DNA of 64,000 nucleotides from Thermoanaerobaculia bacterium. GTDB lineage: Bacteria > Acidobacteriota > Thermoanaerobaculia > Multivoradales > JAGPDF01. The translations under genes were made by a program, and so were the position numbers. Numbering within the stretch: position 1 is the first letter of the stretch; the number at the start of each line of letters is the position of its first letter. Positions 16,358-27,305 of the stretch are shown here, piece by piece. Location of the stretch: positions 497,596 through 561,595 of the forward strand of contig JAXLQW010000001.1 of assembly GCA_046331385.1 (NCBI GenBank), given 5' to 3'. The notes beneath the pieces are model-generated. The model worked only from the letters and a program-made list of their open reading frames with translations. It had not been told where the DNA came from and ran no database searches.

Positions 16358-18085
16358 ATGATCGGCTCGAGGTTCCCTTGGCGCCCTCCTCGCCGGGGCG
16401 TGGCGCTCGCTCTCGCCGCCCTCGCCGGCTCGGCGATGGCGGCGCTGATCCCGATGACCGCCGCCGACTTCTGGGTCGCGGGCACGCAGACCGGCGACGT
16501 CGAAGAGGGGACCCTCCTGCCGGCGACCAACTGCCGCGCCTGCCACGGCAACTTCGATCCGGGGCGCGATCCCTGGTCGACCTGGGCCGGAAGCCTGATG
16601 GGTCTGGCGGGCCGCGATCCGCTGTTCTACGCCCAGCTGACGGCGGCCAATCAGGACGTCGGAGAGGTCGGAACCTTCTGTCTTCGCTGCCACGTACCCC
16701 TGGCCGTGATCAGCGGCCACGCCGCGGATCCCACGGGAGCGGCGCTGACCGACGACGACCGGGGCGGCGTCGATTGCCACTTCTGCCACAGCCTCGTCGA
16801 CCCGATGTACGTGGCCGGGACGAGCCCGCCCGAGGACGAAGCGGTGCTCGCCGGCCTCGCGAATCCGCCCGCCCACGTCGGCAACGCGATGTTCGTGGTC
16901 GACCCCGAGGGGCGGCGGCGGGGACCGTATTCCGACGCTAACCCGCCTCACCTCGCCTTGTCCTCGCCCTTCCACCGCCGAGCCCAGCTTTGCGGTACCT
17001 GCCACGACGTCGGCAATCTCGCGGTGTCCCGCCAGCCGGACGGGACCTACCGGTACAACGCGATCGGAGCCCCAAGTCCCGACCCCGACCCGCACGGCCA
17101 GTTCCCGCTCGAGCGCACCTTCACCGAGTGGCTGCTCAGCAGTTTCGCCAACGGCGGAGTCGACCTGGGAGGTCGATTCGGCGGCTCGCGCGGCCCTCGC
17201 GTCTCGACCTGCCAGGACTGTCATATGCCGACCCATACGGGGCGCGGCTGCTTCGCCGGACCGGAGCGGACCGACCTGGCGAGTCACGAGTTCGCCGGCG
17301 CGGCGGTTCCGGTCCTCGACCTGATCGCGGCGCAGCTCGAGTCGGACCCGAATCCGCCGGTCGATCCCAAGCAGTTGATGCTCGCGCGCGAGCGGGCGCT
17401 CTCGATGCTCCAGCGCGCCGCGAGCCTGGCGCTCTTCGAGCGCGACGGGTTGGTCGTCGCGCGGCTGGTCAATCAGACCGGGCACAAGCTGCCGACCGGG
17501 CACATCGAGGGCCGGAGGATGTGGCTGCACGTCCGCTTCCTCGACCCCGACGGCGAGGTCCTCGCCGAGTACGGTCACTACGACGCCGAGCAGGCCGAGC
17601 TCGACGAGGAGACGACGACGGTTTTCGAGATGCGGGTCGGCCTGAGCGAGGAGGCGGCCGCGGCCACGGGATTGCCGGCGGGAGTCACCGGTCACATGGC
17701 GCTTGCCGACTCGATCGTCGAAGACAATCGGATCCCCCCCCGCGGGTTCGATCCGGCGGCCTTCGCGGCGGCGGGCGCCCCGGCCGTCGGCGCCGCCTAC
17801 GCCGAGGGCCAGTTCTGGCACGACTCCATCTTCACGCCGCCGCCGGGTGCCGTCCGGGCGGAGTGCGAGGTCTACTACCAGAGCCTCCCGCGCCGATACG
17901 TCGAGGCGCTGCGCGATGGCAACGTGACCGACGACCGCGGCAAGGAGCTGGAAGAGCTGTGGGAGCGGACGGGACGGGGCGCGCCGCTGCTCATGACGGC
18001 GGCCAGCGCATTCATGACCGGGTCCTTGTTTTCCGACGGATTCGAGTCCGGCACGACCTACGCTTGGGGCGATCCGCAACCGTGA
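16358..18085 (+). CDS. Secreted pentaheme c-type cytochrome carrying the shared C-terminal tag LFSDGFESGTTYAWGDPQP
   Basis: Signal peptide MIGSRFPWRPPRRGVALALAALAGSAMAA. Five CxxCH motifs are present: CRACH, CLRCH, CHFCH, CGTCH, CQDCH. The C-terminal 18 aa match the tag at 4024 and 44159. Confidence 0.8.
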   Translation: MIGSRFPWRPPRRGVALALAALAGSAMAALIPMTAADFWVAGTQTGDVEEGTLLPATNCRACHGNFDPGRDPWSTWAGSLMGLAGRDPLFYAQLTAANQDVGEVGTFCLRCHVPLAVISGHAADPTGAALTDDDRGGVDCHFCHSLVDPMYVAGTSPPEDEAVLAGLANPPAHVGNAMFVVDPEGRRRGPYSDANPPHLALSSPFHRRAQLCGTCHDVGNLAVSRQPDGTYRYNAIGAPSPDPDPHGQFPLERTFTEWLLSSFANGGVDLGGRFGGSRGPRVSTCQDCHMPTHTGRGCFAGPERTDLASHEFAGAAVPVLDLIAAQLESDPNPPVDPKQLMLARERALSMLQRAASLALFERDGLVVARLVNQTGHKLPTGHIEGRRMWLHVRFLDPDGEVLAEYGHYDAEQAELDEETTTVFEMRVGLSEEAAAATGLPAGVTGHMALADSIVEDNRIPPRGFDPAAFAAAGAPAVGAAYAEGQFWHDSIFTPPPGAVRAECEVYYQSLPRRYVEALRDGNVTDDRGKELEELWERTGRGAPLLMTAASAFMTGSLFSDGFESGTTYAWGDPQP

Positions 18086-18140
18086 GCGGCTCGCCAGGGC
18101 GCGCGGCCCGGGTCGCGGTCGGTTCGGAGAGCCGTCCGCG

Positions 18141-19601
18141 ATGAACCACGATCAACTCGGCGCGTCAGTCGGGAGGCGGCCTTCTGGCGGCCTGCCGGAG
18201 TTGATCCAGGGCGGCATGGGAGTCGGCGTTTCGAACTGGCGGCTCGCGGCGGCGGTCGCCGATTGCGGTCAGCTCGGGGTGGTCTCGGGAACGGCGCTCG
18301 ACGTCCTGCTCGCGCGCCGGTTGCAGGACGGAGACGCCGACGGGAGCCTGCGGCAGGCGATGGAGAGCTTCCCGCTGCCGGAGGTGGCGGCGGCCGTCTG
18401 GAAGCGCTTCTACCGGCCCGGCGGCCGCCGTCCGGGAGAGCCGTATCGGGCCCTCGCGATGTGGAGTCGGACGGTGTCGAAACTGCGCCAGCAGACGACC
18501 GTCCTCGCCAACTTCGTCGAGGTGTTTCTGGCTCGTCGCGGTCGCTCCGGACCGGTGGGGATCAACCTGCTGACCAAGATCCAGCTCCCGAACCTCGCCT
18601 CGCTCTACGGCGCCATGCTCGCCGGCGTCGACTACGTCTTGATGGGCGCGGGAATCCCGCGCGAGATTCCGCGCGTGCTCGACGACTTGGCGGCCCGTCG
18701 CCCGACCGCTCTGCGCCTCGACGTCGAAGGCGAGGCGGCCGAGGCTCCGGACCAGGTGACGCTCGATCCGGCGGCTCTCGGGCCCGCGTCGTCGAGTTCG
18801 CTCAAGCGACCGCGATTCCTCGCGATCGTGGGTTCGAACTCGCTCGCCAGCCTGATCACTCGGAAGTCCCAGCACCCGGCCGACGGGCTGGTGATCGAAG
18901 GGGCGGTCGCGGGCGGACACAATGCGCCGCCGCGGGGCGCGCCGCTGCGCAACCCGCGCGGCGAGCCGGTCTACGGCGAGCGCGACGCGGTCGATCTCGC
19001 CCGGATCGCCGAGTTGGGTCTGCCGTTCTGGCTGGCAGGCGGCTACGGCTCTCCCGAGGCGGTTGCCGAGGCGCGCCGGGTGGGCGCCGCGGGCGTGCAA
19101 GTCGGGACGCTGTTCGCCTACTGCCGCGAATCCGGCTTCGCGCCGGCGCTCAAGCAGCGGGTGCTCGCCGCGGCCGCCTCGGGGGAGCTCGACGTCTTGA
19201 CCGACGCGGACGCCTCGCCGACGGGCTTTCCGTTCAAGGTCGTGCAGCTCGAGGGCACGCTGGCCGAGGAGCGACGCTACCGCGAGCGGCGCCGAATCTG
19301 CGACCTCGGCTACCTGCGCGCGATCTACCGCAAGGCCGACGGGGTGGGATATCGCTGTCCGGCCGAGCCGCTCGAGGATTTCGTCGCCAAGGGCGGAGAC
19401 GCGACGCGCACCGCGGGACGCAAGTGCTTGTGCAACGCCCTGCTGGCGGCGGTCGGGCACGCGCAACTCCGGCCCGGCGGCGAGGCCGAGCTGCCGCTGT
19501 TGACGAGCGGCGACGATCTGCGCCACATCCATCGATTCGCCGCCGGACGGTTGGAGTACACGGCGGCCGAGGTCGTGACCTACCTTCTCGGCCCGCCGTA
19601 G
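18141..19601 (+). CDS. Nitronate monooxygenase (2-nitropropane dioxygenase, NMO) family FMN enzyme
   Basis: N-terminal IQGGMGVGVSNWRLAAAV matches the NMO signature. TIM-barrel-like layout with a later GGHNAPP segment. Confidence 0.7.
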   Translation: MNHDQLGASVGRRPSGGLPELIQGGMGVGVSNWRLAAAVADCGQLGVVSGTALDVLLARRLQDGDADGSLRQAMESFPLPEVAAAVWKRFYRPGGRRPGEPYRALAMWSRTVSKLRQQTTVLANFVEVFLARRGRSGPVGINLLTKIQLPNLASLYGAMLAGVDYVLMGAGIPREIPRVLDDLAARRPTALRLDVEGEAAEAPDQVTLDPAALGPASSSSLKRPRFLAIVGSNSLASLITRKSQHPADGLVIEGAVAGGHNAPPRGAPLRNPRGEPVYGERDAVDLARIAELGLPFWLAGGYGSPEAVAEARRVGAAGVQVGTLFAYCRESGFAPALKQRVLAAAASGELDVLTDADASPTGFPFKVVQLEGTLAEERRYRERRRICDLGYLRAIYRKADGVGYRCPAEPLEDFVAKGGDATRTAGRKCLCNALLAAVGHAQLRPGGEAELPLLTSGDDLRHIHRFAAGRLEYTAAEVVTYLLGPP

Positions 19602-19612
19602 ACTCGCGGGCG

Positions 19613-20107
19613 ATGCGCGTCCTCTATCTCCTCTCGGTCTGGATCCACCTGCTATCGGTCGTCACCTGGCTGGGCTCGACGATCTCGGTCGCGCTCATCC
19701 TGGTGCCGGCGTTGCGCCGGCGCGGAGATCGGCGGCTCACCGCCGAGCTGATGGACGCCGCCGGCCGCCGCTTGCGGACGATGGGCTGGATCGCTTTCGC
19801 GCTGCTCGCGCTCACCGGCACGACGCAGCTCTATGTGCGTGGCTTTCGGTTCGCGGACCTCACGGGTACGCTCTGGCAGGGCGAGTTCGGCCGGGCGCTG
19901 GCGGTGAAGCTCGTGCTCTTCGCGCTCGTGGTGGCGCTCTCGGCGATCCACGACTTCAGCCTCGGTCCGCGCGCCGGGCGCGCCGCGCCGGGGTCGGCCG
20001 AGGCCGAGTCCCTGCGCCGCAGGGCCTCCTGGCTCGGCCGGCTGAACCTAGTCTTCGGACTGCTGATCGTCTTCTTCGCCAGCGGCCTGGTGCGCGGCGG
20101 GCCCTGA
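19613..20107 (+). CDS. Small integral membrane protein (4 predicted TM helices; CopD/DUF4149-like)
   Basis: ATG at 19613. Four hydrophobic helices: LLSVVTWLGSTISVALILV, MGWIAFALLALTGTT, LAVKLVLFALVVALSAI, LNLVFGLLIVFFASGL. Confidence 0.5.
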   Translation: MRVLYLLSVWIHLLSVVTWLGSTISVALILVPALRRRGDRRLTAELMDAAGRRLRTMGWIAFALLALTGTTQLYVRGFRFADLTGTLWQGEFGRALAVKLVLFALVVALSAIHDFSLGPRAGRAAPGSAEAESLRRRASWLGRLNLVFGLLIVFFASGLVRGGP

Positions 20108-20647
20108 AGCGGGAGGCAGGGGGCGCAGGTCGAACACCCCTCCCGGTCCGAGCACCAGAATCCGCACTCGACCGCGGGGAAATTCGACGACGCCCGTGAA
20201 ACGCGGGCTGCCGAGCTCGGCCGTCGCCTCGGCGGGGGCGCCGGCCGGGGGCACCGGCCGGAACTCGACCTCGACGTCGTGCCGGCCGGGCGGGATCTCG
20301 AGCTGCTCTTCGACCGCCAGCGGACGGGTACGGCGGACGCCCTTGTGGCGGACCTCGCGCTCGAGCCGCGACGTGCCGTCGATCGTCACCCGCAGCCGGT
20401 AGTCGATCGCGGTTTCCTGGCACTGCCGCCTCTGGCGCATGTGCGCCGGCAGCTGGGCGAGCTCGCTCTCCGTGAGGTCGCGGCAGATCTCGATCTTGGC
20501 GTGCTCGGCGCGCAGCGCCAGGCGCAGCGCGGCCGCGGTCGCCGGCGCGCCGAGCGGCATGTGCGCCAGCGCGCCGACCGCCGCCACCAGCGCCGCCGCG
20601 AGTGCCAGGCCGGCGAGGGAACGCACGATGCGGCGGATTTCAGGCAT
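20048..20647 (-). CDS. Hypothetical protein with an N-terminal signal-anchor; last gene of the heme-copper oxidase operon
   Basis: ATG lies 2 nt after the stop of the upstream cytochrome b fusion gene. N-terminus MPEIRRIVRSLAGLALAAALVAAVGALA. No recognisable domain. Confidence 0.45.
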   Translation of the reverse strand: MPEIRRIVRSLAGLALAAALVAAVGALAHMPLGAPATAAALRLALRAEHAKIEICRDLTESELAQLPAHMRQRRQCQETAIDYRLRVTIDGTSRLEREVRHKGVRRTRPLAVEEQLEIPPGRHDVEVEFRPVPPAGAPAEATAELGSPRFTGVVEFPRGRVRILVLGPGGVFDLRPLPPASGPAAHQAAGEEDDQQSED

Positions 20648-22247
20648 GCGCCACCTCGACGCCAGCCTCGCTCTCGGCGGGGGTCTCGCACACCAGCTCC
20701 GGCTCCCAAGCTTCGACCGTGCCGCCGCCGAGCCGGTCGACCCGCGCTTCGAGATCGCCGAGCGCCGCGACGATGCGCGGCCACTCGCCGGGCGAGAAGC
20801 TCGCGACTTCGACGCGCAGGCGATCGACCCGCTCCGGCAGCTCGGCCTCGCGGCCGTCGAAGACGCGCGCCGCCAGCCACTTCGGGCCTTCGCGGAAATA
20901 GCAGTCGCGCGGCGAGCAGGTGAGCAGGAAAACTCCGCCGGCGCCGCGGCGCAGGAGCAGCTCGAGCACCGAGGTGTGCACCGATCCGCCGCAGCCGGTG
21001 GGCAGGATGGAGCGCTGCGGGCCGGCGAGCCGGGCGAGCGTCGCGGCGTGCCCGTTGGCGCAGCCGAGGATCACGATCTGGCGCGGTCCGGGGCGCTCGC
21101 GTTCGAGAAAAGCGCGCGCCGCCGCGAGCTGATCGCGGCCGGTGCGCTCGGCGGGGCCGACGCCCATCGGCGCGCAGGAGCCGGCGCAGATGCCGCAGCC
21201 GACGCAGCGCGTCGGATCGACGCGCGCCACCAGCGGCGAGTGCTGGCGCTCGGCGAGCGTGCGCGGCACCATGGCGATCGCCTCGTAGGGGCAGTCCTGA
21301 TAGCAGTTGGTGCAGCCCGTGCAGTGGTCCTCGTCGACGAAGGAGGGCGCGATCTCGCGCCGCGGCCGCCAGAGCCAGGGCAGCGCGACGAGCAGCGAGA
21401 AGAGCGCCAGCCAGAAGCCGAGGTGGGCGAGCGGCTCGACGCGCTGGGCGAGCGGCAGCCAGAAGGCGAAGAAGAGATCGGTCGCCAGGCGGTCCGGCAG
21501 CTGCGTCAGATCGGCGGCGGGTGGCAGGCGGACCGGCGCCACCGCAGCGTAGACCACCAAGAGCGCCAGGACGTAGCGGCGAACGGCGCGCGGCGGCAGG
21601 AGCGCGGGGCGGGCGAGGCGCGAGACGTGCAGCCAGAGGACAGCGGCGATGCCGAGCGGCAGGGCGACGTGCAGGAACAGGTTCATGAAGAAGAACGACG
21701 ACGGGATCGGCGTCTCGCCGCTGAAGTTGCGCGCGATGGGTTCGGAGAAGATGGGCAGCAGGTCGGCGAGCCGCGCCCCCTCGACCGCGATCTGCTGGCC
21801 CTGGCGGTCCCAGACCATCACCAGGCCGGTCCAGCCGGAGAGCAGCACCACCCCGAGCAGCACGATGCCGGAGATCCAGGCGACCGCCCGCGGACCCCAA
21901 GTTTGGCCGTGCGCCAGCTTGCGCAGCAGGTGCAGGATGACGGCGACGATCGCCAGGTCGGCGCTGTAGCGGTGCATCGAGCGCGCCCAGGCGCCGAGGA
22001 AGACCCGCTGCTGGATCTCCACCACCGAGCCGTGGGCATCGGCGATGCGGTAGAAGAGGAAGAGGTAGAGACCGGTCGCCAGGGTAACCAGGAAGAAGAG
22101 GATCGCCAGGTTGCCGCTTTGGTAGATCGGATTGAAGCGTGAGCCGTAGAGACGGTCGAAGAGCCGGTCGAGGAGCGCCAGCAGGCGGCCGAGGCTGCGG
22201 CCGATGGCCGGCGGACCCGCGGCGCCGGCGGCCGGCTTGGAGCTCAC
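20640..22247 (-). CDS. Fusion protein: cytochrome b N-terminal-like membrane domain + 4Fe-4S dicluster ferredoxin + MvhD/FlpD-like domain
   Basis: Membrane part (FNPIYQSGNLAILFFLVTLATGLYL, MHRYSADLAIVAVILHLLRKLAHG) resembles the cytochrome b/b6 N-terminal domain. Two Fe-S motifs follow: CTGCTNCYQDCP and CVGCGICAGSCAP. A C-terminal Cys-rich segment (GCANGHA...CGGS...CSPRDC) matches the FlpD/MvhD pattern. Proposed GTG start at 22245-22247 overlaps the SCO1 stop (GTGA); this start is uncertain. The ORF's longer N-terminal extension is Arg/Pro-rich junk. Confidence 0.6.
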   Translation of the reverse strand: MSSKPAAGAAGPPAIGRSLGRLLALLDRLFDRLYGSRFNPIYQSGNLAILFFLVTLATGLYLFLFYRIADAHGSVVEIQQRVFLGAWARSMHRYSADLAIVAVILHLLRKLAHGQTWGPRAVAWISGIVLLGVVLLSGWTGLVMVWDRQGQQIAVEGARLADLLPIFSEPIARNFSGETPIPSSFFFMNLFLHVALPLGIAAVLWLHVSRLARPALLPPRAVRRYVLALLVVYAAVAPVRLPPAADLTQLPDRLATDLFFAFWLPLAQRVEPLAHLGFWLALFSLLVALPWLWRPRREIAPSFVDEDHCTGCTNCYQDCPYEAIAMVPRTLAERQHSPLVARVDPTRCVGCGICAGSCAPMGVGPAERTGRDQLAAARAFLERERPGPRQIVILGCANGHAATLARLAGPQRSILPTGCGGSVHTSVLELLLRRGAGGVFLLTCSPRDCYFREGPKWLAARVFDGREAELPERVDRLRVEVASFSPGEWPRIVAALGDLEARVDRLGGGTVEAWEPELVCETPAESEAGVEVAHA

Positions 22248-23188
22248 CGCGCCGGCTCCGCCGAGCGCCGCAGAGCCTCGACGAGCCAGGCCGGTGAGGG
22301 ATTGAGGAAGCGGTAGGCGAGACGGCCCTCGGGATCGACCACGAAGGCGAGCCCCGGGTGGACGATGTCGCCGGTCGCCAGGTCCCGGCTGGCGCCGATT
22401 CCCCAGGCGTCGTGGGTCGCGGTCACGGCGGAGATCTCTCCCGAGAGGACGCGTGCGTCGGGATCGTCCGCGAGCTGCCACTGCGCGGCGATCGAGGACA
22501 GCGATCCTACCGTGTCGCGCCACGGGTCGAGCGTCACCACCACGATCGCCGGACGCAGCGCCGGCGGCGAGAGATCGCGTGCCCGGCGCAGAGTGGCGAC
22601 CAGCACCGGACAGACGGTCCGGCAGTGGGCGAAAGCGAAAGTGACCAGCGCCGGCCGTCCGCGCAGGGAGGCGAGGTCGAAGCTCGCACCTCCGGCCGCG
22701 GTGAGCCGGAGCGGCGGCGCGGGATCGCCGCCGCGCGGATAGAACTCGGGCAGGGGCTCGGGCGCCGCCTCGGCGCCGATCGCCCGCCCGGCGCGGGCCG
22801 CGGAGGCGACGCGGTCGCCGAGCCAGATGGCGCCGACGGCGAGCGCCAGAGCGAGCGTGCCGAGGAGCGTCGCGCCGGCGAGCCGGCCCGAGAGCCAGGC
22901 GAGGCCGGCGCGCAGCTCCCGTCCCCAGACGACGAGCAAGAAGCCGAGCATCGAGGCGGGGCCGAGGACGAGGAGCATCCAGCCGTAGTCGTCGGGCAGG
23001 CCGCTCGGCAGGGTGCCGAAGCAGATCGCCCGCGTCCGGGTCAGCCAGTCCGGTGGGAGAGAAAGCGGAGCGAACGCCAGGGCCCACCAGAGCCCGGTCA
23101 CCGCCAGCCAGCCGAAGAACGCGGCGAGCGGGAACGGGGCCGGGCGAGGCTCGGCGCCGGTGGGCGCCATGGCGTCCGCGTGCGACAC
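22244..23188 (-). CDS. SCO1/SenC family copper chaperone with an N-terminal membrane domain
   Basis: Thioredoxin-like domain with a CxxxC motif (FAFAHCRTVCP) and a downstream His (ATHDAWG). Two or three hydrophobic helices at the N-terminus. Confidence 0.7.
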   Translation of the reverse strand: MSHADAMAPTGAEPRPAPFPLAAFFGWLAVTGLWWALAFAPLSLPPDWLTRTRAICFGTLPSGLPDDYGWMLLVLGPASMLGFLLVVWGRELRAGLAWLSGRLAGATLLGTLALALAVGAIWLGDRVASAARAGRAIGAEAAPEPLPEFYPRGGDPAPPLRLTAAGGASFDLASLRGRPALVTFAFAHCRTVCPVLVATLRRARDLSPPALRPAIVVVTLDPWRDTVGSLSSIAAQWQLADDPDARVLSGEISAVTATHDAWGIGASRDLATGDIVHPGLAFVVDPEGRLAYRFLNPSPAWLVEALRRSAEPAR

Positions 23189-23192
23189 GGTG

Positions 23193-24965
23193 TCAGCCGA
23201 CCTTCCAGATCATCGACAGGATCTTCCAGTTGGTGAAGTAGTAGAGGATGAAGACCGCCAGGAAGACGAAGACCAGCACGATGGTGCCGGGCGCGCCGAC
23301 CTTGTGCGCCGCCTCGGAGGTGGCGAGGTCGTGCGACTGCGCGGGAAGGCGGAGAACGCCCTGCGGGATCCCCCGGGCGTTGGCCTCGAGGGCCGCCGGA
23401 TCGAACTTCTTGCCGAAGAAGATCGACACCACCGCAATGGCGATGAAGGACAGCACGGCGATGACCGCGATCACTCCGCCGATGCCGATGCCGGCCATGA
23501 AGAGATCGACCGCCGGCGGGAACTCGAGGTGGAAAGGCGCGCCCGGGAAAGTGATGTCGGCGTGCCGGCGCGGCACCCCGAAGGTGCCGGCGAAGGTCAT
23601 GCTCATCGACAGGATGACGATGCCGAGCGCGAACAGGTAGGGCTGCCAGCGGGCGAGACCCCAGAACGCGACGCGCTTCCGGAACACGAGCGGGATCACG
23701 TAGTAGGTGAGCGCCATGAAGGCGAGAGCCGTCCCGCCGACCACGGTGACGTGGAAGTGGCCGGGGACGCGCAGGGTGTTGTGGGCGATGATGTTGATCT
23801 GCTCGGTGCCCTGGGTCACGCCGGTGACCCCGCCCATGAAGCCGAAGATGACGATCGACAGGAAGGTGCCGGAGAAGCCAGGGTCCGACCACGGGGCCTT
23901 GCGCAGCCACTCGAAGCGCCCCTTGTTGAAGCCGCGCAGGCGCATGCCCATCTCCATGCCGGCGGGCACGGTGAAGCCGTGGATCATCGAGGCGAGCACC
24001 GCGAGGTACATGGCGTAACTGGTGTTCCAGACTTTCCACGCCGGGCCCATGCCGGGGTCGACCAGCAGGTGGTGCGCCGAGGCCATGGAGATGAAGAGGA
24101 CGTAGAGCACGAAGGCCCAGCGGCTGACTTTCTGGTTGACCACCACCGCGCCGATGGTGAGCGCTCCCATCAGATACCAGACCGAGACCATCGCCGCGAC
24201 GTTGATCTGTTGCGAGGAGTGGCCGAGGGCCCAGAACACCATGCGGTAGACCTCGGGGTCGACGTTCATCTTGTCGATCGACCAGAGGAAGGTCGGGATG
24301 TAGATCGCGGCGCCGTGCACCAGGGTGATCACCGCGATGATCGCCGCGGTCAGGGCGCCGAAGGTGACGAGCGACATCGAGCCCGAGTAGGACTTCTCGC
24401 GCTTGGCCACCACCAGGGCGGCGAAGAAGAGTAGGGTGGCGATGAGCGCCCCGACCGCGAAGAGGATGATTCCCAGGTAGTAGGCCGGGTGGGCGCGCAG
24501 CGGGATGTAGGAGGTGAAGAGCACGTCCGCCTTGCCGGCGAAGACCATCACGTCGACGAGCAGCGCTCCGGCGAGCATCAGGCTGAATCCCGCCCAGGCG
24601 AGCTTCGGTGCCGGCTGCCGGCAGCCGAGCAGCACCGGCCCGGCGAAGTAGAGGATCGCCATCTCGAAGAAGATGATGAAGAAGATCAGCATGTTGAGCC
24701 CGTGCGCGGTCAACATGCGGTAGTACCAGACCGGGTTGAGCAGGTGGACCGCCTGCCAGCGGGTGAGCGCCAGCAGCAGGGCGGCGATCACCCCGACCAG
24801 GAAGAAGACCACGCCGGCGACCGCGTTCCATTTCACCAGGCGCTCGGAATCGCGATTGACGGTCAGGCCGGTGACCGGACAGACGCGGGCGGCGAGGCGC
24901 CAGATGGCGCTCGGCTCGCGGGCGCCGACGGGCGCGCCTCCCGAGGTAACGTCAGCGACGCTCAT
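23193..24965 (-). CDS. Heme-copper oxidase superfamily subunit I (divergent; no Tyr follows the CuB His; possibly NOR-related)
   Basis: Twelve-plus TM helices. Conserved His pattern: FWALGHSSQQ, MASAHHLLV, HFHVTVV. The A/B-family GHPEVY cross-link Tyr is replaced by GHSSQQ. The start overlaps the subunit II gene by 14 nt. Confidence 0.75.
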   Translation of the reverse strand: MSVADVTSGGAPVGAREPSAIWRLAARVCPVTGLTVNRDSERLVKWNAVAGVVFFLVGVIAALLLALTRWQAVHLLNPVWYYRMLTAHGLNMLIFFIIFFEMAILYFAGPVLLGCRQPAPKLAWAGFSLMLAGALLVDVMVFAGKADVLFTSYIPLRAHPAYYLGIILFAVGALIATLLFFAALVVAKREKSYSGSMSLVTFGALTAAIIAVITLVHGAAIYIPTFLWSIDKMNVDPEVYRMVFWALGHSSQQINVAAMVSVWYLMGALTIGAVVVNQKVSRWAFVLYVLFISMASAHHLLVDPGMGPAWKVWNTSYAMYLAVLASMIHGFTVPAGMEMGMRLRGFNKGRFEWLRKAPWSDPGFSGTFLSIVIFGFMGGVTGVTQGTEQINIIAHNTLRVPGHFHVTVVGGTALAFMALTYYVIPLVFRKRVAFWGLARWQPYLFALGIVILSMSMTFAGTFGVPRRHADITFPGAPFHLEFPPAVDLFMAGIGIGGVIAVIAVLSFIAIAVVSIFFGKKFDPAALEANARGIPQGVLRLPAQSHDLATSEAAHKVGAPGTIVLVFVFLAVFILYYFTNWKILSMIWKVG

Positions 24966-25539
24966 GCTCGACCTCCTTGGCGAGCGCGGAGACCCGCGCC
25001 GCCGGCTCGACCACGATGCGGCCGAGCATGGTGTGGTGATTGATGCCGCAGAACTCGTTGCAGACGATGCGGTAGTCGCCGGGCTTGTTGGGCTGGATGG
25101 TGAGCCCGTAGTCGTAGCCCGGGACGATCTGGATATTGAGGTTCGCCGGATAGAGGCTGAAGCCGTGATTGACGTCGATCGACGAGAGGTGGATGGTGTA
25201 GCTCGCCCCTTCTTGCAGCTTCAGCGCCGGATACCAGCGCCACATCTGGGCCATCAGGTAGACGTCGCTGCCGGGCGGCGGTGCGACCAGCGGAATGCCG
25301 TTCTCCTCGCCGATCTTGTACTCCTCGACGAAGCGGAAGACGCGCGCCACGTAGTCCTCGGGCTTGACCCGCGAGCGGATGCCCGAAGGGTTCTGGCCGC
25401 CGCGCAGATGCCAGAAGGGCATCATCGCGAACAGCACCATGCACCAGCAGAAAGCGATCGCCACCCACAGGCGCTCCTGCTTGCCCGCGGGTCGCCACCA
25501 CACGCCCTGCGGAGTCACGATTCCGGAATGGAGCTCCAT
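24952..25539 (-). CDS. Heme-copper oxidase subunit II with a complete CuA centre
   Basis: Single N-terminal TM helix and a cupredoxin domain. CuA ligands H..CNEFCGINHHTM are present. ATG at 25537-25539 lies 9 nt from the IS end. Confidence 0.8.
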   Translation of the reverse strand: MELHSGIVTPQGVWWRPAGKQERLWVAIAFCWCMVLFAMMPFWHLRGGQNPSGIRSRVKPEDYVARVFRFVEEYKIGEENGIPLVAPPPGSDVYLMAQMWRWYPALKLQEGASYTIHLSSIDVNHGFSLYPANLNIQIVPGYDYGLTIQPNKPGDYRIVCNEFCGINHHTMLGRIVVEPAARVSALAKEVEHERR

Positions 25540-25548
25540 CGCATCTCC

Positions 25549-27153
25549 TTAGCCCGGATCCACGGATAAGGCGGGGATGTTGAAGTAGCGGAAGCGCCCC
25601 AAGCCTGATAAGACGGCGCTGTTCAAGGTCGTCGTCTTCAGGAGAGGAGCACTTCCGAGGTGAAGATCCCAAAGCGAGTCCGTGGCGTCAAGTTCCGATC
25701 GTCGGGCGCGGCGACGACCTCCTTCGCGGGCCTGCGTTTCGTGGTCGAGCTGGCGTCGAAGCTGCGAGTGATCGAGCGGCTCCGCGTCGTTTCGGTGAAG
25801 AAACGCCGTCGAGGAATTCCAGTCGAGGACTTCGTGATGAGCCTGGCGTCGAGCTTTCTGGTCGGCGGCGACAGCCTGAGCGATCTGTCTGTGCTGCGAG
25901 AAGAGACCGTGACGCGCGAGTTGTGCTTCGATCTCGAGGTGCCGGCGCCGACGACGGCGGGCGAGCGTCTGCGCAGCTTCTCGTTGGGTCACCTGCGACA
26001 GCTCGATGGAGCCCAGCGTGAGACCTGCCGCGAAATTCTCGAGCGGACGAGTGGGAGCGAAGCGCTGACGCTGGACGTGGACAGCTCGATCATCGAGGTC
26101 TACGGCGACCAGAAGCAGGGTGCGCGTTTCGGCTACAGCGGCGTGCGTGGGCTGCATCCGCTGCTGGCCTTCGCTCACGAGGAGCGGCTTCTGTTGGGGG
26201 CGCGGCTACGCGCGGGCAACCGAGCCTCGTCGGACGGCGTCGTCCCGTTTCTCGAAGACGTCCTCACGGCGATCCCGGCTCGCCGTCGGGTGCGCCTGCG
26301 GATGGACGCCGGTTTCTACGGCAAGTCGGTGGAAGGATTCGCGACCGAGCGTGCCCTGGGCTTCAGCATTTCGGCGAGGCTGACGAAGCGGCTGCGCGCC
26401 GAGATCGAAGCGCTTCCCGAAGGGGCGTGGCGCAGCTATCCGTGGGAAGAAGAGGCCGAGTACGCCGAGCTGCGTTACCGGCCCACGGGCTGGTCGAGCG
26501 ACTACCGCCTCCTCGTCAAGCGGACGCCCTGGTTCGACCAGGAGCAGCGCCTGCTCGACGAGCACTTCTTCACGCCGGTCATCACCAACCTGCCGGGCGC
26601 CGCGAGCAGCCTGATTCGCTATCACCTGGCACGCGGTGGGGCCGAGAACTACATCGAGGAGTTCAAGTCCGGCATCGGCGCCTCGCATCTGCCCTCACGC
26701 TGCTTTCACGCCAACTGGGCCTGGCTGTTGATCGCCGCTCTCGCTTACAACCTCGCGCAAGCCTTCAAGCTCCTGCTGCTCCCCGCCGCCGAGCAGGCGC
26801 AGCAGATCAAGAAGCTGCGCCTGCACTGGCTGTGCGTCGCCGCCCGCTTCATCCGCACCGGCAGACGCTTCGTCCTGGCGCTCGCTCGCGGACCGGACAC
26901 GGCCAACGCCTTCGAGCGCCTGCAACAACAGCTCACCACGCTCTGATTCCGCAACCAAGGGAAGCGGCATCCCGGCTGCGCGCCAGGAGTGTCTCCCGCG
27001 GACCCCTCCATCCTCCAACTCACGCTCGACCACCGCCTTCGACCGCGAACACCAGCCCTACCTGAGCCAGAAATCCGCCGCGCGGGTGGCCGCTGCAGCA
27101 ATCTGAGCCCGTCCGCTCCACTTCAGCCGCCTTACCCGTGGATCCGGGCTTAG
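25549..27153 (+). mobile_element. IS1380-family insertion sequence (~1.6 kb) with 24-27-bp imperfect terminal inverted repeats
   Basis: IRL ttagcccggatccacggataaggcgg at 25549-25574. IRR ccgccttacccgtggatccgggcttagg at 27127-27153, whose reverse complement matches IRL at 24 of 26 positions. One transposase ORF lies between them. No clean target-site duplication could be identified. Confidence 0.75.
25660..26946 (+). CDS. IS1380-family DDE transposase
   Basis: 428 aa. GTG start preceded by ggagaggag. Features characteristic of IS4/IS1380-type transposases: ...VDSSIIEVYGDQKQGARFGYSGVRGLHPL... and C-terminal YHLARGGAENYIEEFKSGIGASHLPSRCFHANWAWLLIAALAYNL. Confidence 0.7.
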   Translation: MKIPKRVRGVKFRSSGAATTSFAGLRFVVELASKLRVIERLRVVSVKKRRRGIPVEDFVMSLASSFLVGGDSLSDLSVLREETVTRELCFDLEVPAPTTAGERLRSFSLGHLRQLDGAQRETCREILERTSGSEALTLDVDSSIIEVYGDQKQGARFGYSGVRGLHPLLAFAHEERLLLGARLRAGNRASSDGVVPFLEDVLTAIPARRRVRLRMDAGFYGKSVEGFATERALGFSISARLTKRLRAEIEALPEGAWRSYPWEEEAEYAELRYRPTGWSSDYRLLVKRTPWFDQEQRLLDEHFFTPVITNLPGAASSLIRYHLARGGAENYIEEFKSGIGASHLPSRCFHANWAWLLIAALAYNLAQAFKLLLLPAAEQAQQIKKLRLHWLCVAARFIRTGRRFVLALARGPDTANAFERLQQQLTTL

Positions 27154-27305
27154 GGGAGCTTTCCCTGGGGTAGGGAGAGGATCTCGAAGAGGCCCCATCC
27201 CGTGTAAAAGAGGACCATCACGAAGAGGCCGGCGGCGAGCAGCAGGAACGGCCGCTCGAAGAGCCGCTGCCCGAGGGGTACGGGGTCTTTCACGGATTCG
27301 GCCAT
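27150..27305 (-). CDS. Small single-TM membrane protein (51 aa), possibly an oxidase subunit IIa-like accessory subunit; its stop codon lies inside the IS terminal repeat
   Basis: Not in the ORF track because it is under the length cutoff. ATG at 27303-27305 with an aaggaggg RBS. Sequence MAESVKDPVPLGQRLFERPFLLLAAGLFVMVLFYTGWGLFEILSLPQGKLP. The stop TAA is the 'tta' of the IRR outer end (cctaagcccgg). Confidence 0.45.
   Translation of the reverse strand: MAESVKDPVPLGQRLFERPFLLLAAGLFVMVLFYTGWGLFEILSLPQGKLP

Follow-up and report, generated by a model that had tools for sequence, protein, structure and literature searches.

An eNOR-type nitric oxide reductase operon with a linked cytochrome b–iron–sulfur fusion protein, a candidate electron-input module

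eNOR is a family of nitric oxide (NO) reductases within the heme-copper superfamily that was proposed in 2008 (Hemp & Gennis), characterised in 2024 (Murali et al., PMC11214002) and counted in 547 GTDB genomes. Its biochemical hallmark is the presence of heme As and the reduction of NO to nitrous oxide (N2O), but not of O2. In environmental data, eNORs rank among the most frequent NO reductases (Murali et al. 2024, PMC11214002); they are a source of the greenhouse gas N2O and are usually misannotated as cytochrome c oxidase. Their electron donor in vivo appears unsettled, with published work naming artificial donors only, and whether the eNOR step conserves energy is a question raised in the same study (PMC11214002). 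A locus in the genome of a Thermoanaerobaculia bacterium raises both the question of which enzyme it encodes and that of what feeds it. In the 64,000-nucleotide stretch analysed here (the window; contig JAXLQW010000001.1, positions 497,596 to 561,595), five closely packed genes on the minus strand (20048–25539) encode, in order, a heme-copper subunit II, a subunit I, an SCO1/SenC copper chaperone, a fusion of a cytochrome b with two [4Fe-4S] clusters and an FlpD domain, and a 199-residue protein. An initial annotation, made from the letters alone, related the enzyme to the sNOR branch and proposed that the fusion is a dedicated electron-input module. Here we assign subunit I to eNOR and describe a near-obligate linkage of the fusion to such enzymes. 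We consider it slightly more probable than not (about 0.55) that the locus is an eNOR operon with a dedicated cytochrome b/iron–sulfur (Fe–S) electron-input module.

Subunit I carries the eNOR signature

The best solved relative of subunit I in the PDB is the ba3 oxidase (E ~1e-42, compared with ~1e-6 for A-family enzymes). All six canonical histidines are kept: H72 of ba3 corresponds to H88, His233 to H249, H282/H283 to H298/H299 and H384/H386 to H403/H405. The cross-link tyrosine of ba3, Tyr237, is replaced by Q253 within GHSSQQIN (H249-S-S-Q-Q253 versus H233-P-I-V-Y237). The K-channel analogue is kept in part, with Y248, S309 and T315 of ba3 mapping to Y264, S326 and T332, T312 to H329 and Y244 to V260; Y264, S326 and H329 are invariant in the alignment of subunit I homologues. 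The motif GH-x-[SA]-Q-Q-[IV]-N is invariant in all relatives examined, from 98% down to 47% identity and from Acidobacteriota to plasmid-borne genes of Thermus thermophilus, Thermomicrobium roseum and a Defluviimonas strain (Paracoccaceae), and a homologue in a Rhodothermales metagenome-assembled genome (MAG; L064) has the same glutamine motif. Matches on haloarchaeal plasmids were rejected as eNOR references, being ordinary ba3 oxidases with GHPVVY. The initial annotation had read the five minus-strand genes, a complete CuA site, the GHSSQQ stretch and an NOR-type offshoot without the cross-link tyrosine from the letters; the open reading frames, Pfam and the alignment with ba3 confirm each of these, and the affinity to ba3 places the offshoot in the B family.

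The residue four positions after the first active-site histidine marks the family: Tyr in oxidases, Glu in cNOR and qNOR, Asn in sNOR and bNOR, Gln in eNOR and Asp in gNOR (PMC8756737 Table A4). The equivalent of Ser309 is kept in eNOR, bNOR and B1 oxidases and is absent from sNOR (Murali et al. 2024, PMC11214002), and gNORs have lost one histidine and the CuA ligands (PMC11214002). Subunit I retains the three active-site histidines, as eNORs do. It shows neither the gNOR exchange of an active-site histidine for Asp nor, with all CuA ligands present in subunit II, the gNOR loss of that site, and it reads GHSSQQ in place of the GHP-x-V-Y that provides the His–Tyr cross-link of B-family O2 reductases. 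The operons of relatives have the order II–I–(heme o synthase)–Sco1, or contain a CtaA–CtaB fusion, which fits described eNOR operons. Given Gln253, the kept Ser326, the intact histidines and CuA ligands, a GHFK motif in a Thermus homologue and the operon content, subunit I belongs, as far as sequence can tell, to eNOR, a B-family-derived NO reductase, and not to sNOR. An sNOR assignment, towards which the initial annotation had leaned partly on account of the Sco gene, is rejected on both diagnostic positions, Gln253 standing where sNOR has Asn and Ser326 where sNOR has no counterpart. A Sco gene is standard in eNOR operons (bioRxiv 10.64898/2026.01.22.701106) and is therefore no pointer to sNOR. 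NO reductase activity would follow from family membership, by analogy with the Rhodothermus marinus eNOR, which reduces NO but not O2 (PMC11214002).

Gene context lends some further support to the NO-reductase reading. Matches to NirS or to NirK-like multicopper oxidases lie less than 10 kb away in up to 19 of 73 related loci (tblastn); about six of the NirS matches are full-length, and in L006 nirS sits between both halves of the cluster. No other denitrification genes were found in the 64-kb window. The Thermus homologue just mentioned is encoded on T. thermophilus plasmid pHB5018d (L007, 7983–9665), where Lys replaces the second low-spin heme histidine in an eNOR-type subunit I; His/Lys ligation of the low-spin heme is described for some eNORs (PMC11214002). 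The gene lies near those for an Rrf2 regulator, a nirK-like multicopper oxidase and a cytochrome c, with no fusion gene within 8 kb. All sources annotate the Gln-type subunit I as ‘cytochrome c oxidase subunit I’ or ‘cbb3-type cytochrome c oxidase subunit I’ and the fusion as ‘hydrogenase iron-sulfur subunit’; both names are systematic misannotations.

The accessory proteins agree with a CuA-containing B-type enzyme. Subunit II consists of one N-terminal membrane helix and a cupredoxin domain; its residues 22–178 match T. thermophilus ba3 subunit II (1ehk_B, E 9e-17), and its translation holds a complete set of CuA ligands, with His in DVNHGF followed by C-N-E-F-C-G-I-N-H-H-T-M (His...CxExCx3Hx2M). 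SCO1/SenC carries its CxxxC in HCRTVC and is kept beside subunit I in most loci. The Pfam domain covers only residues 160–289 of this protein, and the N-terminal extension of about 150 residues, with several hydrophobic segments, is unusual for Sco; relatives are 310–314 residues long. A small gene, encoding 41–66 residues in relatives, lies directly upstream of subunit II in L001–L003 and L005–L009, and tblastn matches to it occur in 33 of the 73 genome loci and in 41 of the 120 from metagenomes. The 51-residue version in the window has a single helix and no match in the libraries searched; it is a putative third small subunit, analogous to subunit IIa of ba3.

The fusion gene tracks CuA-containing B-type enzymes

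Linkage was assessed in both directions, each search being blind to the other partner. For the fusion side we scanned one genome per GTDB species with two peptide motifs of the fusion alone, which gave 73 loci, spread over more than 12 phyla, that encode a homologue containing cytochrome b. The hosts are Acidobacteriota, Gemmatimonadota, Myxococcota, Bdellovibrionota, Latescibacterota, Verrucomicrobiota, Calditrichota, Bacteroidota/Rhodothermales, Planctomycetota, Alpha-, Beta- and Gammaproteobacteria, Chloroflexota and Actinomycetota. A heme-copper subunit I lies within about 4 kb in 67 of the 73 loci (tblastn), that is, in all 67 with enough flanking sequence, as the other six end less than 1.7 kb from the fusion. 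Among these 67 neighbours, 61 are of the Gln type (57 with the motif visible and 4 truncated) and 6 belong to the B family, the latter being genuine Tyr-containing oxidases with GHPLVYFWLL.

For the subunit I side, metagenome contigs were scanned with the exact pattern W..GH..QQ[IV]N......WY, which matched 59 of 91 known loci (those of Thermus, Thermomicrobium and Defluviimonas included) and none of the six B-family loci. The scan yielded 120 metagenome loci, 30 of them with at least 4 kb downstream of subunit I, and the fusion is present in 25 of these 30 informative Gln-type loci. The exceptions carry a CtaA–CtaB gene, cyoE and SCO only, or a second COX1-like gene. The two-gene module of fusion and partner accompanies about 80% of eNOR genes sampled without bias. 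The gene sets occur together in varied layouts: co-directional, divergent, or with one to three genes (or nirS) in between. Judged by these neighbourhoods, the linkage is strong and ancient and is not specific to NO; it tracks CuA-containing B-type enzymes. The initial annotation had called the fusion a non-standard, operon-linked partner, a view that the counts of 67/67 and 25/30 uphold, and the random distribution that it had named as speaking against its proposal is ruled out by the genome survey.

On one metagenome contig with 31% G+C (L176, 8120–12189), subunit I is followed by a 254-residue open reading frame and a second, divergent COX1-like gene (537 residues), and no fusion was detected there. 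The COX1-like gene may be of the ‘eNOR scaffold protein’ type mentioned for Ferrigenium.

Anatomy of the fusion and its partner

Pfam finds every domain that the initial annotation had named, including, in the fusion, Cytochrome_B (E 3e-20), two Fer4 motifs and FlpD (E 1.5e-10; 41.6 bits against a cut-off of 22.3). Two histidine pairs in helices B and D, the hallmark of a di-heme cytochrome b, are present as His 92/106/193/207, which are invariant and have the 14-residue spacing of bc1 cytochrome b. Eight invariant cysteines form two CxxCxxCxxxCP motifs (C309–C319 and C348–C358), and four more, C396, C419, C444 and C449, lie in the MvhD/FlpD-like domain, as expected of that family. In an AlphaFold model (predicted local distance difference test (pLDDT) 83.4, predicted template modelling score (pTM) 0.82), six membrane helices precede the Fe–S domains, and the fusion keeps helices A–F, the cd region and an ef-like loop of a bc1-type cytochrome b. 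The N-terminus of cytochrome b lies inside. Since the Fe–S domains follow helix F, the Fe–S chain is predicted to be cytoplasmic, next to heme bH. The Fe–S/MvhD half resembles the C-terminal part of HdrA2 (NCBIfam, residues 302–507; below the curated cut-off). Pfam detected no flavin or NAD(P) domain in the fusion and no Rieske domain in any operon gene, so that a Rieske subunit is missing from the set.

The 199-residue partner has an N-terminal membrane helix and a beta-sandwich domain, with conserved C55, H69 (followed by M70-R71 in LPAHMR) and C76. At least 16 eNOR-linked loci encode it as an in-frame C-terminal extension of the cytochrome b protein, and in seven more loci a tail of 173–206 residues carries the same helix and HMR motif. 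Six B-family-linked loci, from Caldilineales (Chloroflexota) and Acidimicrobiia/Actinomycetota MAGs, encode a homologous single polypeptide of 720–842 residues. In five of these six long versions Pfam finds cytochrome b, two [4Fe-4S] motifs, FlpD and a C-terminal cytochrome c, and between FlpD and the cytochrome c domain lie a transmembrane helix and a beta-rich region. Profile–profile comparison relates this region to the 199-residue family (probability 90.8%, E 1.2e-6, 134 columns); this was the only comparison to match, the family profile giving no match against one extended-fusion sequence. The cytochrome c domain occurs in the six B-family-linked versions and in none of the eNOR-linked ones. 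The single polypeptides of these relatives show that the two window genes encode parts of one machine. The beta-sandwich would lie on the periplasmic side, given that it comes after a transmembrane helix past the cytoplasmic Fe–S domains and before the cytochrome c domain.

The HMR tripeptide recurs within an inserted segment in the tails of L038, L047, L052, L054, L060, L064 and L068. In split versions of the partner the segment is flanked by two invariant cysteines, and the cytochrome c-ended versions do not have it; it could be a site for a metal or for redox chemistry. In 17 loci, most of them from Alphaproteobacteria, the gene immediately after that of the partner encodes a hemerythrin, as it does in the Defluviimonas plasmid locus L008. 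This hemerythrin may be an O2/NO-binding accessory.

A candidate route for electrons into eNOR

Gene identities, cofactor-binding residues, predicted topology, the family signature and the near-obligate linkage in both directions are the observations from which we infer in which direction electrons flow, what donates them and that the module is in contact with CuA. Electrons would enter at the periplasmic-side CuA of subunit II, which would be loaded with copper by SCO1, and pass through the low-spin heme of subunit I to the site of high-spin heme and non-heme metal. At this Gln253 site the enzyme would carry out the two-electron reduction of 2 NO to N2O; because Gln253 stands in place of the cross-linked tyrosine, four-electron O2 reduction is not supported. 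Protons would probably come from the cytoplasm through the kept K-channel analogue. The last two genes would provide a two-protein membrane redox module, a di-heme cytochrome b with an Fe–S tail and a periplasmic beta-sandwich. We propose that this module takes electrons from quinol, through a Qo-like (quinol-oxidising) pocket, and/or from a cytoplasmic donor through the Fe–S chain, and passes them through hemes bH and bL to the periplasmic side, where CuA would receive them. The classical electron donor of CuA is cytochrome c, and in the oxidase-linked relatives delivery would run through the built-in cytochrome c.

The initial annotation had put forward the idea of a dedicated electron-input module as a hypothesis. 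The fused partners and the cytochrome c-ended versions beside true ba3-type oxidases now favour it, without amounting to proof, and it keeps the status of an inference. A broader claim, that the module and its partner, with or without cytochrome c, form an unrecognised and widespread Rieske-less relative of bc complexes that wires quinol or a cytoplasmic reductant to eNOR or ba3-type oxidases, we hold tentatively, at somewhat less than even odds.

Several points weigh against a dedicated electron-input module. The role of the fusion/partner pair is read from genes, and about one locus in six, plus those of Thermus and Thermomicrobium, has no module nearby. The isolated R. marinus eNOR is active with the artificial donor TMPD (tetramethyl-p-phenylenediamine)/ascorbate (PMC11214002); together with the loci that have no module, this means that catalysis does not require the module. 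In the eNOR-linked versions a cytochrome c domain is missing, which leaves the last step to CuA unexplained, and since the operon contains no Rieske protein, a normal Qo reaction is impossible. An outward flow of electrons from the cytoplasm would dissipate membrane potential, an odd companion to the proposed energy-conserving K-channel. The fixed place of the fusion gene after SCO1 fits a role in maturation equally well, and an insertion sequence (IS) described below could leave the operon unexpressed in this organism.

The absence of a Rieske protein also bears on an alternative in which the module is a bifurcating, or ‘reverse’, device: quinol would be oxidised at the periplasmic Qo-like pocket, one electron would go uphill in potential to CuA of eNOR or of the oxidase and the other inward through bL and bH to the Fe–S chain, so that NO or O2 reduction would pay for a strong reductant, the low-potential acceptor being ferredoxin or, with a partner, NAD(P)+. 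The elements that build a Qo site are kept (helices A–F, the cd region and the ef-like loop), the Fe–S/MvhD half is like the C-terminal part of the electron-bifurcating HdrA2, and in a preprint on Ferrigenium a paralogue with FAD/NADH domains, encoded in the same operon, is proposed to couple quinol:NAD+ reduction with that of NO. We nevertheless consider bifurcation unlikely, as the eNOR-linked operons offer no Rieske protein or other obvious first acceptor, the fusion itself is devoid of flavin and NAD(P) domains, and no conserved cytoplasmic acceptor gene appears in the neighbourhood of the loci.

Less likely still is a maturation factor, a transmembrane reductase that would carry reducing power from the cytoplasm to the periplasm and there maintain Sco thiols or Cu(I)/Fe(II) in the reduced state, or aid cofactor insertion into CuA-containing B-type enzymes in another way, with the beta-sandwich partner handling metal. 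Such a role would suit the position of the fusion gene, always after SCO1 (and after heme o synthase where present) and with a start that in the window overlaps the SCO1 stop. It would also suit the conserved Cys55, His69 and Cys76 of the partner and the recurrence of the HMR tripeptide in the tails, but the cysteine pair is not kept in the fused versions. A gene for a CopD-like copper transporter abuts the operon in the window and in close relatives, a linkage confined to few loci. CuA and heme assembly is the common need of the NO- and O2-reducing B-type enzymes beside which the module occurs; the C-terminal cytochrome c of the B-family-linked versions, however, is typical of a CuA donor and is no chaperone trait, and the Ferrigenium fusion appears in the proteome alongside the enzyme subunits (in values whose scale is not given).

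That subunit I is instead an O2 reductase with its tyrosine supplied from another helix, as in cbb3, or an sNOR, is very improbable. In its favour are the six retained histidines, the partly preserved K-channel, an oxidase as the nearest solved structure and the Sco gene that also stands beside the sNOR genes of ammonia oxidisers, for which an oxidase role has been argued. Against it, the His+4 residue is Gln in every family member and the only invariant tyrosine near the helix VII histidine pair is Y288, ten residues before H298, whereas the cbb3 tyrosine presumably lies about six residues before the pair. Migrated tyrosines were not found in these NOR families (Murali et al. 2024, PMC11214002), O2 is not reduced by the R. 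marinus enzyme, and the sNOR option fails on the two positions given above.

Gene models, insertion sequence and neighbourhood

The gene models were refined along the operon (Table 1). The fusion had been listed as an over-extended open reading frame of 815 residues; its true start is a GTG that overlaps the SCO1 stop codon as GTGA, and the resulting product is identical to an NCBI protein of a Thermoanaerobaculia MAG. The genes for subunits I and II overlap by 14 nt, and the start of the partner gene overlaps the fusion stop by 8 nt. The window has about 70% G+C. The homology support for the operon genes and their thousands of relatives mean that they are not chance open reading frames. A scan with NCBIfam gave no model at its curated cut-off for any operon protein.

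Table 1. Features of the operon region in the window and the related loci referred to in the text. Enzyme names are assignments; coordinates with an L number are those of the related locus.
Feature	Position	Strand	Basis or remark
Small single-helix protein, 51 aa, putative small subunit	27150..27305	-	Sequence MAESVKDPVPLGQRLFERPFLLLAAGLFVMVLFYTGWGLFEILSLPQGKLP; normally first gene of the cluster
IS element, 1596 bp	25553..27148	.	Transposase Pfam match, blastn against relative, inverted repeats
DDE transposase gene in the IS	25660-26946	+	Pfam DDE_Tnp_1_4, E 1.3e-57
eNOR subunit II	24952..25539	-	Pfam COX2; match to ba3 subunit II
eNOR subunit I, 590 aa	23193..24965	-	Pfam COX1, E 8.5e-65
SCO1/SenC copper chaperone, 314 aa	22244..23188	-	Pfam SCO1-SenC, E 4.5e-17
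Cytochrome b-2x[4Fe-4S]-FlpD fusion, 535 aa	20640..22247	-	Pfam; corrected start
Beta-sandwich partner of the fusion, 199 aa	20048..20647	-	Comparison with relatives; listed before as hypothetical
Cytochrome c-ended versions	L071 9848-12322; L074 5399-7582; L075 9908-12070		Directly after Tyr-containing B-family oxidase
Cytochrome c-ended versions, continued	L079 9905-12292; L080 9878-12406; L082 7355-9520		Directly after Tyr-containing B-family oxidase
Loci with hemerythrin gene	L040, L041, L048-L051, L055-L058, L061-L063, L069, L076-L078		~12.1 kb in most

The initial annotation mentioned neither the 51-residue first gene nor the IS element that separates it from the rest. The IS is bounded by terminal inverted repeats of 22 bp, its target is duplicated over 5 bp (CTTAG), and it sits about 10 bp upstream of the subunit II start, after the stop codon of the 51-residue gene. 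A relative that is 98% identical (L001) has no IS, and blastn shows a clean insertion with a 5-bp overlap. The reading frames of the operon are all intact, so the insertion is recent. It may part the five downstream genes from their promoter, silencing or re-wiring the operon; a scan around the IS revealed no sigma-70-like promoter site.

The window neighbours are housekeeping genes, among them glnA and genes for tRNA synthetases, the shikimate pathway and HMG-CoA reductase. Downstream of the operon, at 16358–20107, are three further genes. One encodes a 575-residue protein with five CxxCH motifs and weak matches to MtrC/cytochrome c7, another is nitronate monooxygenase-like, and the CopD-like membrane protein is encoded convergently at 19613–20107, overlapping the end of the 199-residue gene; it is a neighbour in close relatives only.

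Discussion

Three features of these loci are apparently undescribed in the literature that could be searched: the presence of the fusion beside most eNOR genes across more than a dozen phyla, its obligatory beta-sandwich partner, and the cytochrome c-ended versions beside true ba3-type oxidases. The eNOR literature consulted does not name Thermoanaerobaculia as a host, and the R. marinus eNOR work does not mention a cytochrome b/Fe–S partner. For a cytochrome b/MvhD fusion with heme-copper enzymes, a literature search returned nothing relevant by title beyond a preprint of May 2026 on Ferrigenium (bioRxiv 10.64898/2026.01.22.701106). There the fusion is called ‘Cytbc1C-like protein 2’, with the same IMG product name, proteomics of culture KS, growing on Fe(II) and nitrate, detected the operon products, and the authors regard the cytochrome b proteins as ‘rather unusual’ and as possible genus markers. 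What had seemed a peculiarity of Ferrigenium is a general eNOR feature. The linkage of the module, together with its cytochrome c-ended relatives, provides a concrete candidate for the missing eNOR donor, and the module would sharpen genome-based prediction of denitrification. If the broader claim is true, denitrification and respiration at low oxygen would have a new entry point for electrons in Acidobacteriota, Gemmatimonadota, Myxococcota, Verrucomicrobiota, Proteobacteria, Actinomycetota and others.

Comparison with known systems

The closest known operon is that of Ferrigenium straubiae KS, which, like the one in the window, encodes eNOR II, eNOR I, Sco1 and the cytochrome b/Fe–S protein; it differs in having, in addition, heme o synthase, the cytochrome b protein with FAD/NADH domains, a COX1-like ‘scaffold’ protein and PerM. 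With the eNOR family at large the operon shares a B-family-derived subunit I, the glutamine, three metal-site histidines, CuA and a K-channel analogue that includes the Ser309 equivalent. Sco and heme-biosynthesis genes in related operons and a broad spread that extends to the Rhodothermales MAG (L064) are common ground too. Set against known eNORs, the window operon comes from Thermoanaerobaculia, has no gene for heme o or heme a synthase and is interrupted by the IS.

The ba3 oxidase of Thermus thermophilus provides the closest solved structures for both subunits and is alike in its histidine ligands, CuA, small extra subunit and part of the K-channel. It is fed by soluble cytochrome c552. 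In the window enzyme Tyr237, Tyr244 and Thr312 of ba3 are replaced by Gln, Val and His, and the chemistry to be expected by analogy is reduction of NO rather than O2. The sNORs of ammonia oxidisers (norSY–senC) resemble the window operon in their B-type subunit without the tyrosine, their CuA subunit and the adjacent Sco/SenC gene; the published description sets them apart by Asn at His+4, where the window enzyme has Gln, and by the absence of a Ser309 equivalent.

The fusion has its own set of relatives. Its fold of helices A–F, four-histidine spacing and cd and ef-like periplasmic elements are those of bc1/b6f cytochrome b, but helices G–H and the PEWY motif are missing, the operon encodes neither a Rieske nor a cytochrome c1/f partner, and a cytoplasmic Fe–S chain is covalently attached. 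Its other half, a dicluster ferredoxin ahead of an FlpD/MvhD domain in which four cysteines are conserved, recalls MvhD and the C-terminal part of HdrA2, the electron-relay module of heterodisulfide reductase systems. Here, this unit is joined to a membrane cytochrome b instead of a hydrogenase or flavoprotein, and the HdrA flavin domain and HdrB/C are absent. In NOX/FRE-type reductases, a cytoplasmic electron-entry domain is fused to a di-heme membrane domain able to carry electrons outward; the folds are unrelated and the cofactors are FAD/NADPH in place of Fe–S clusters, which makes the likeness to the fusion an analogy only. Measured against these systems, the operon is a further member of the established eNOR family with an under-appreciated accessory module.

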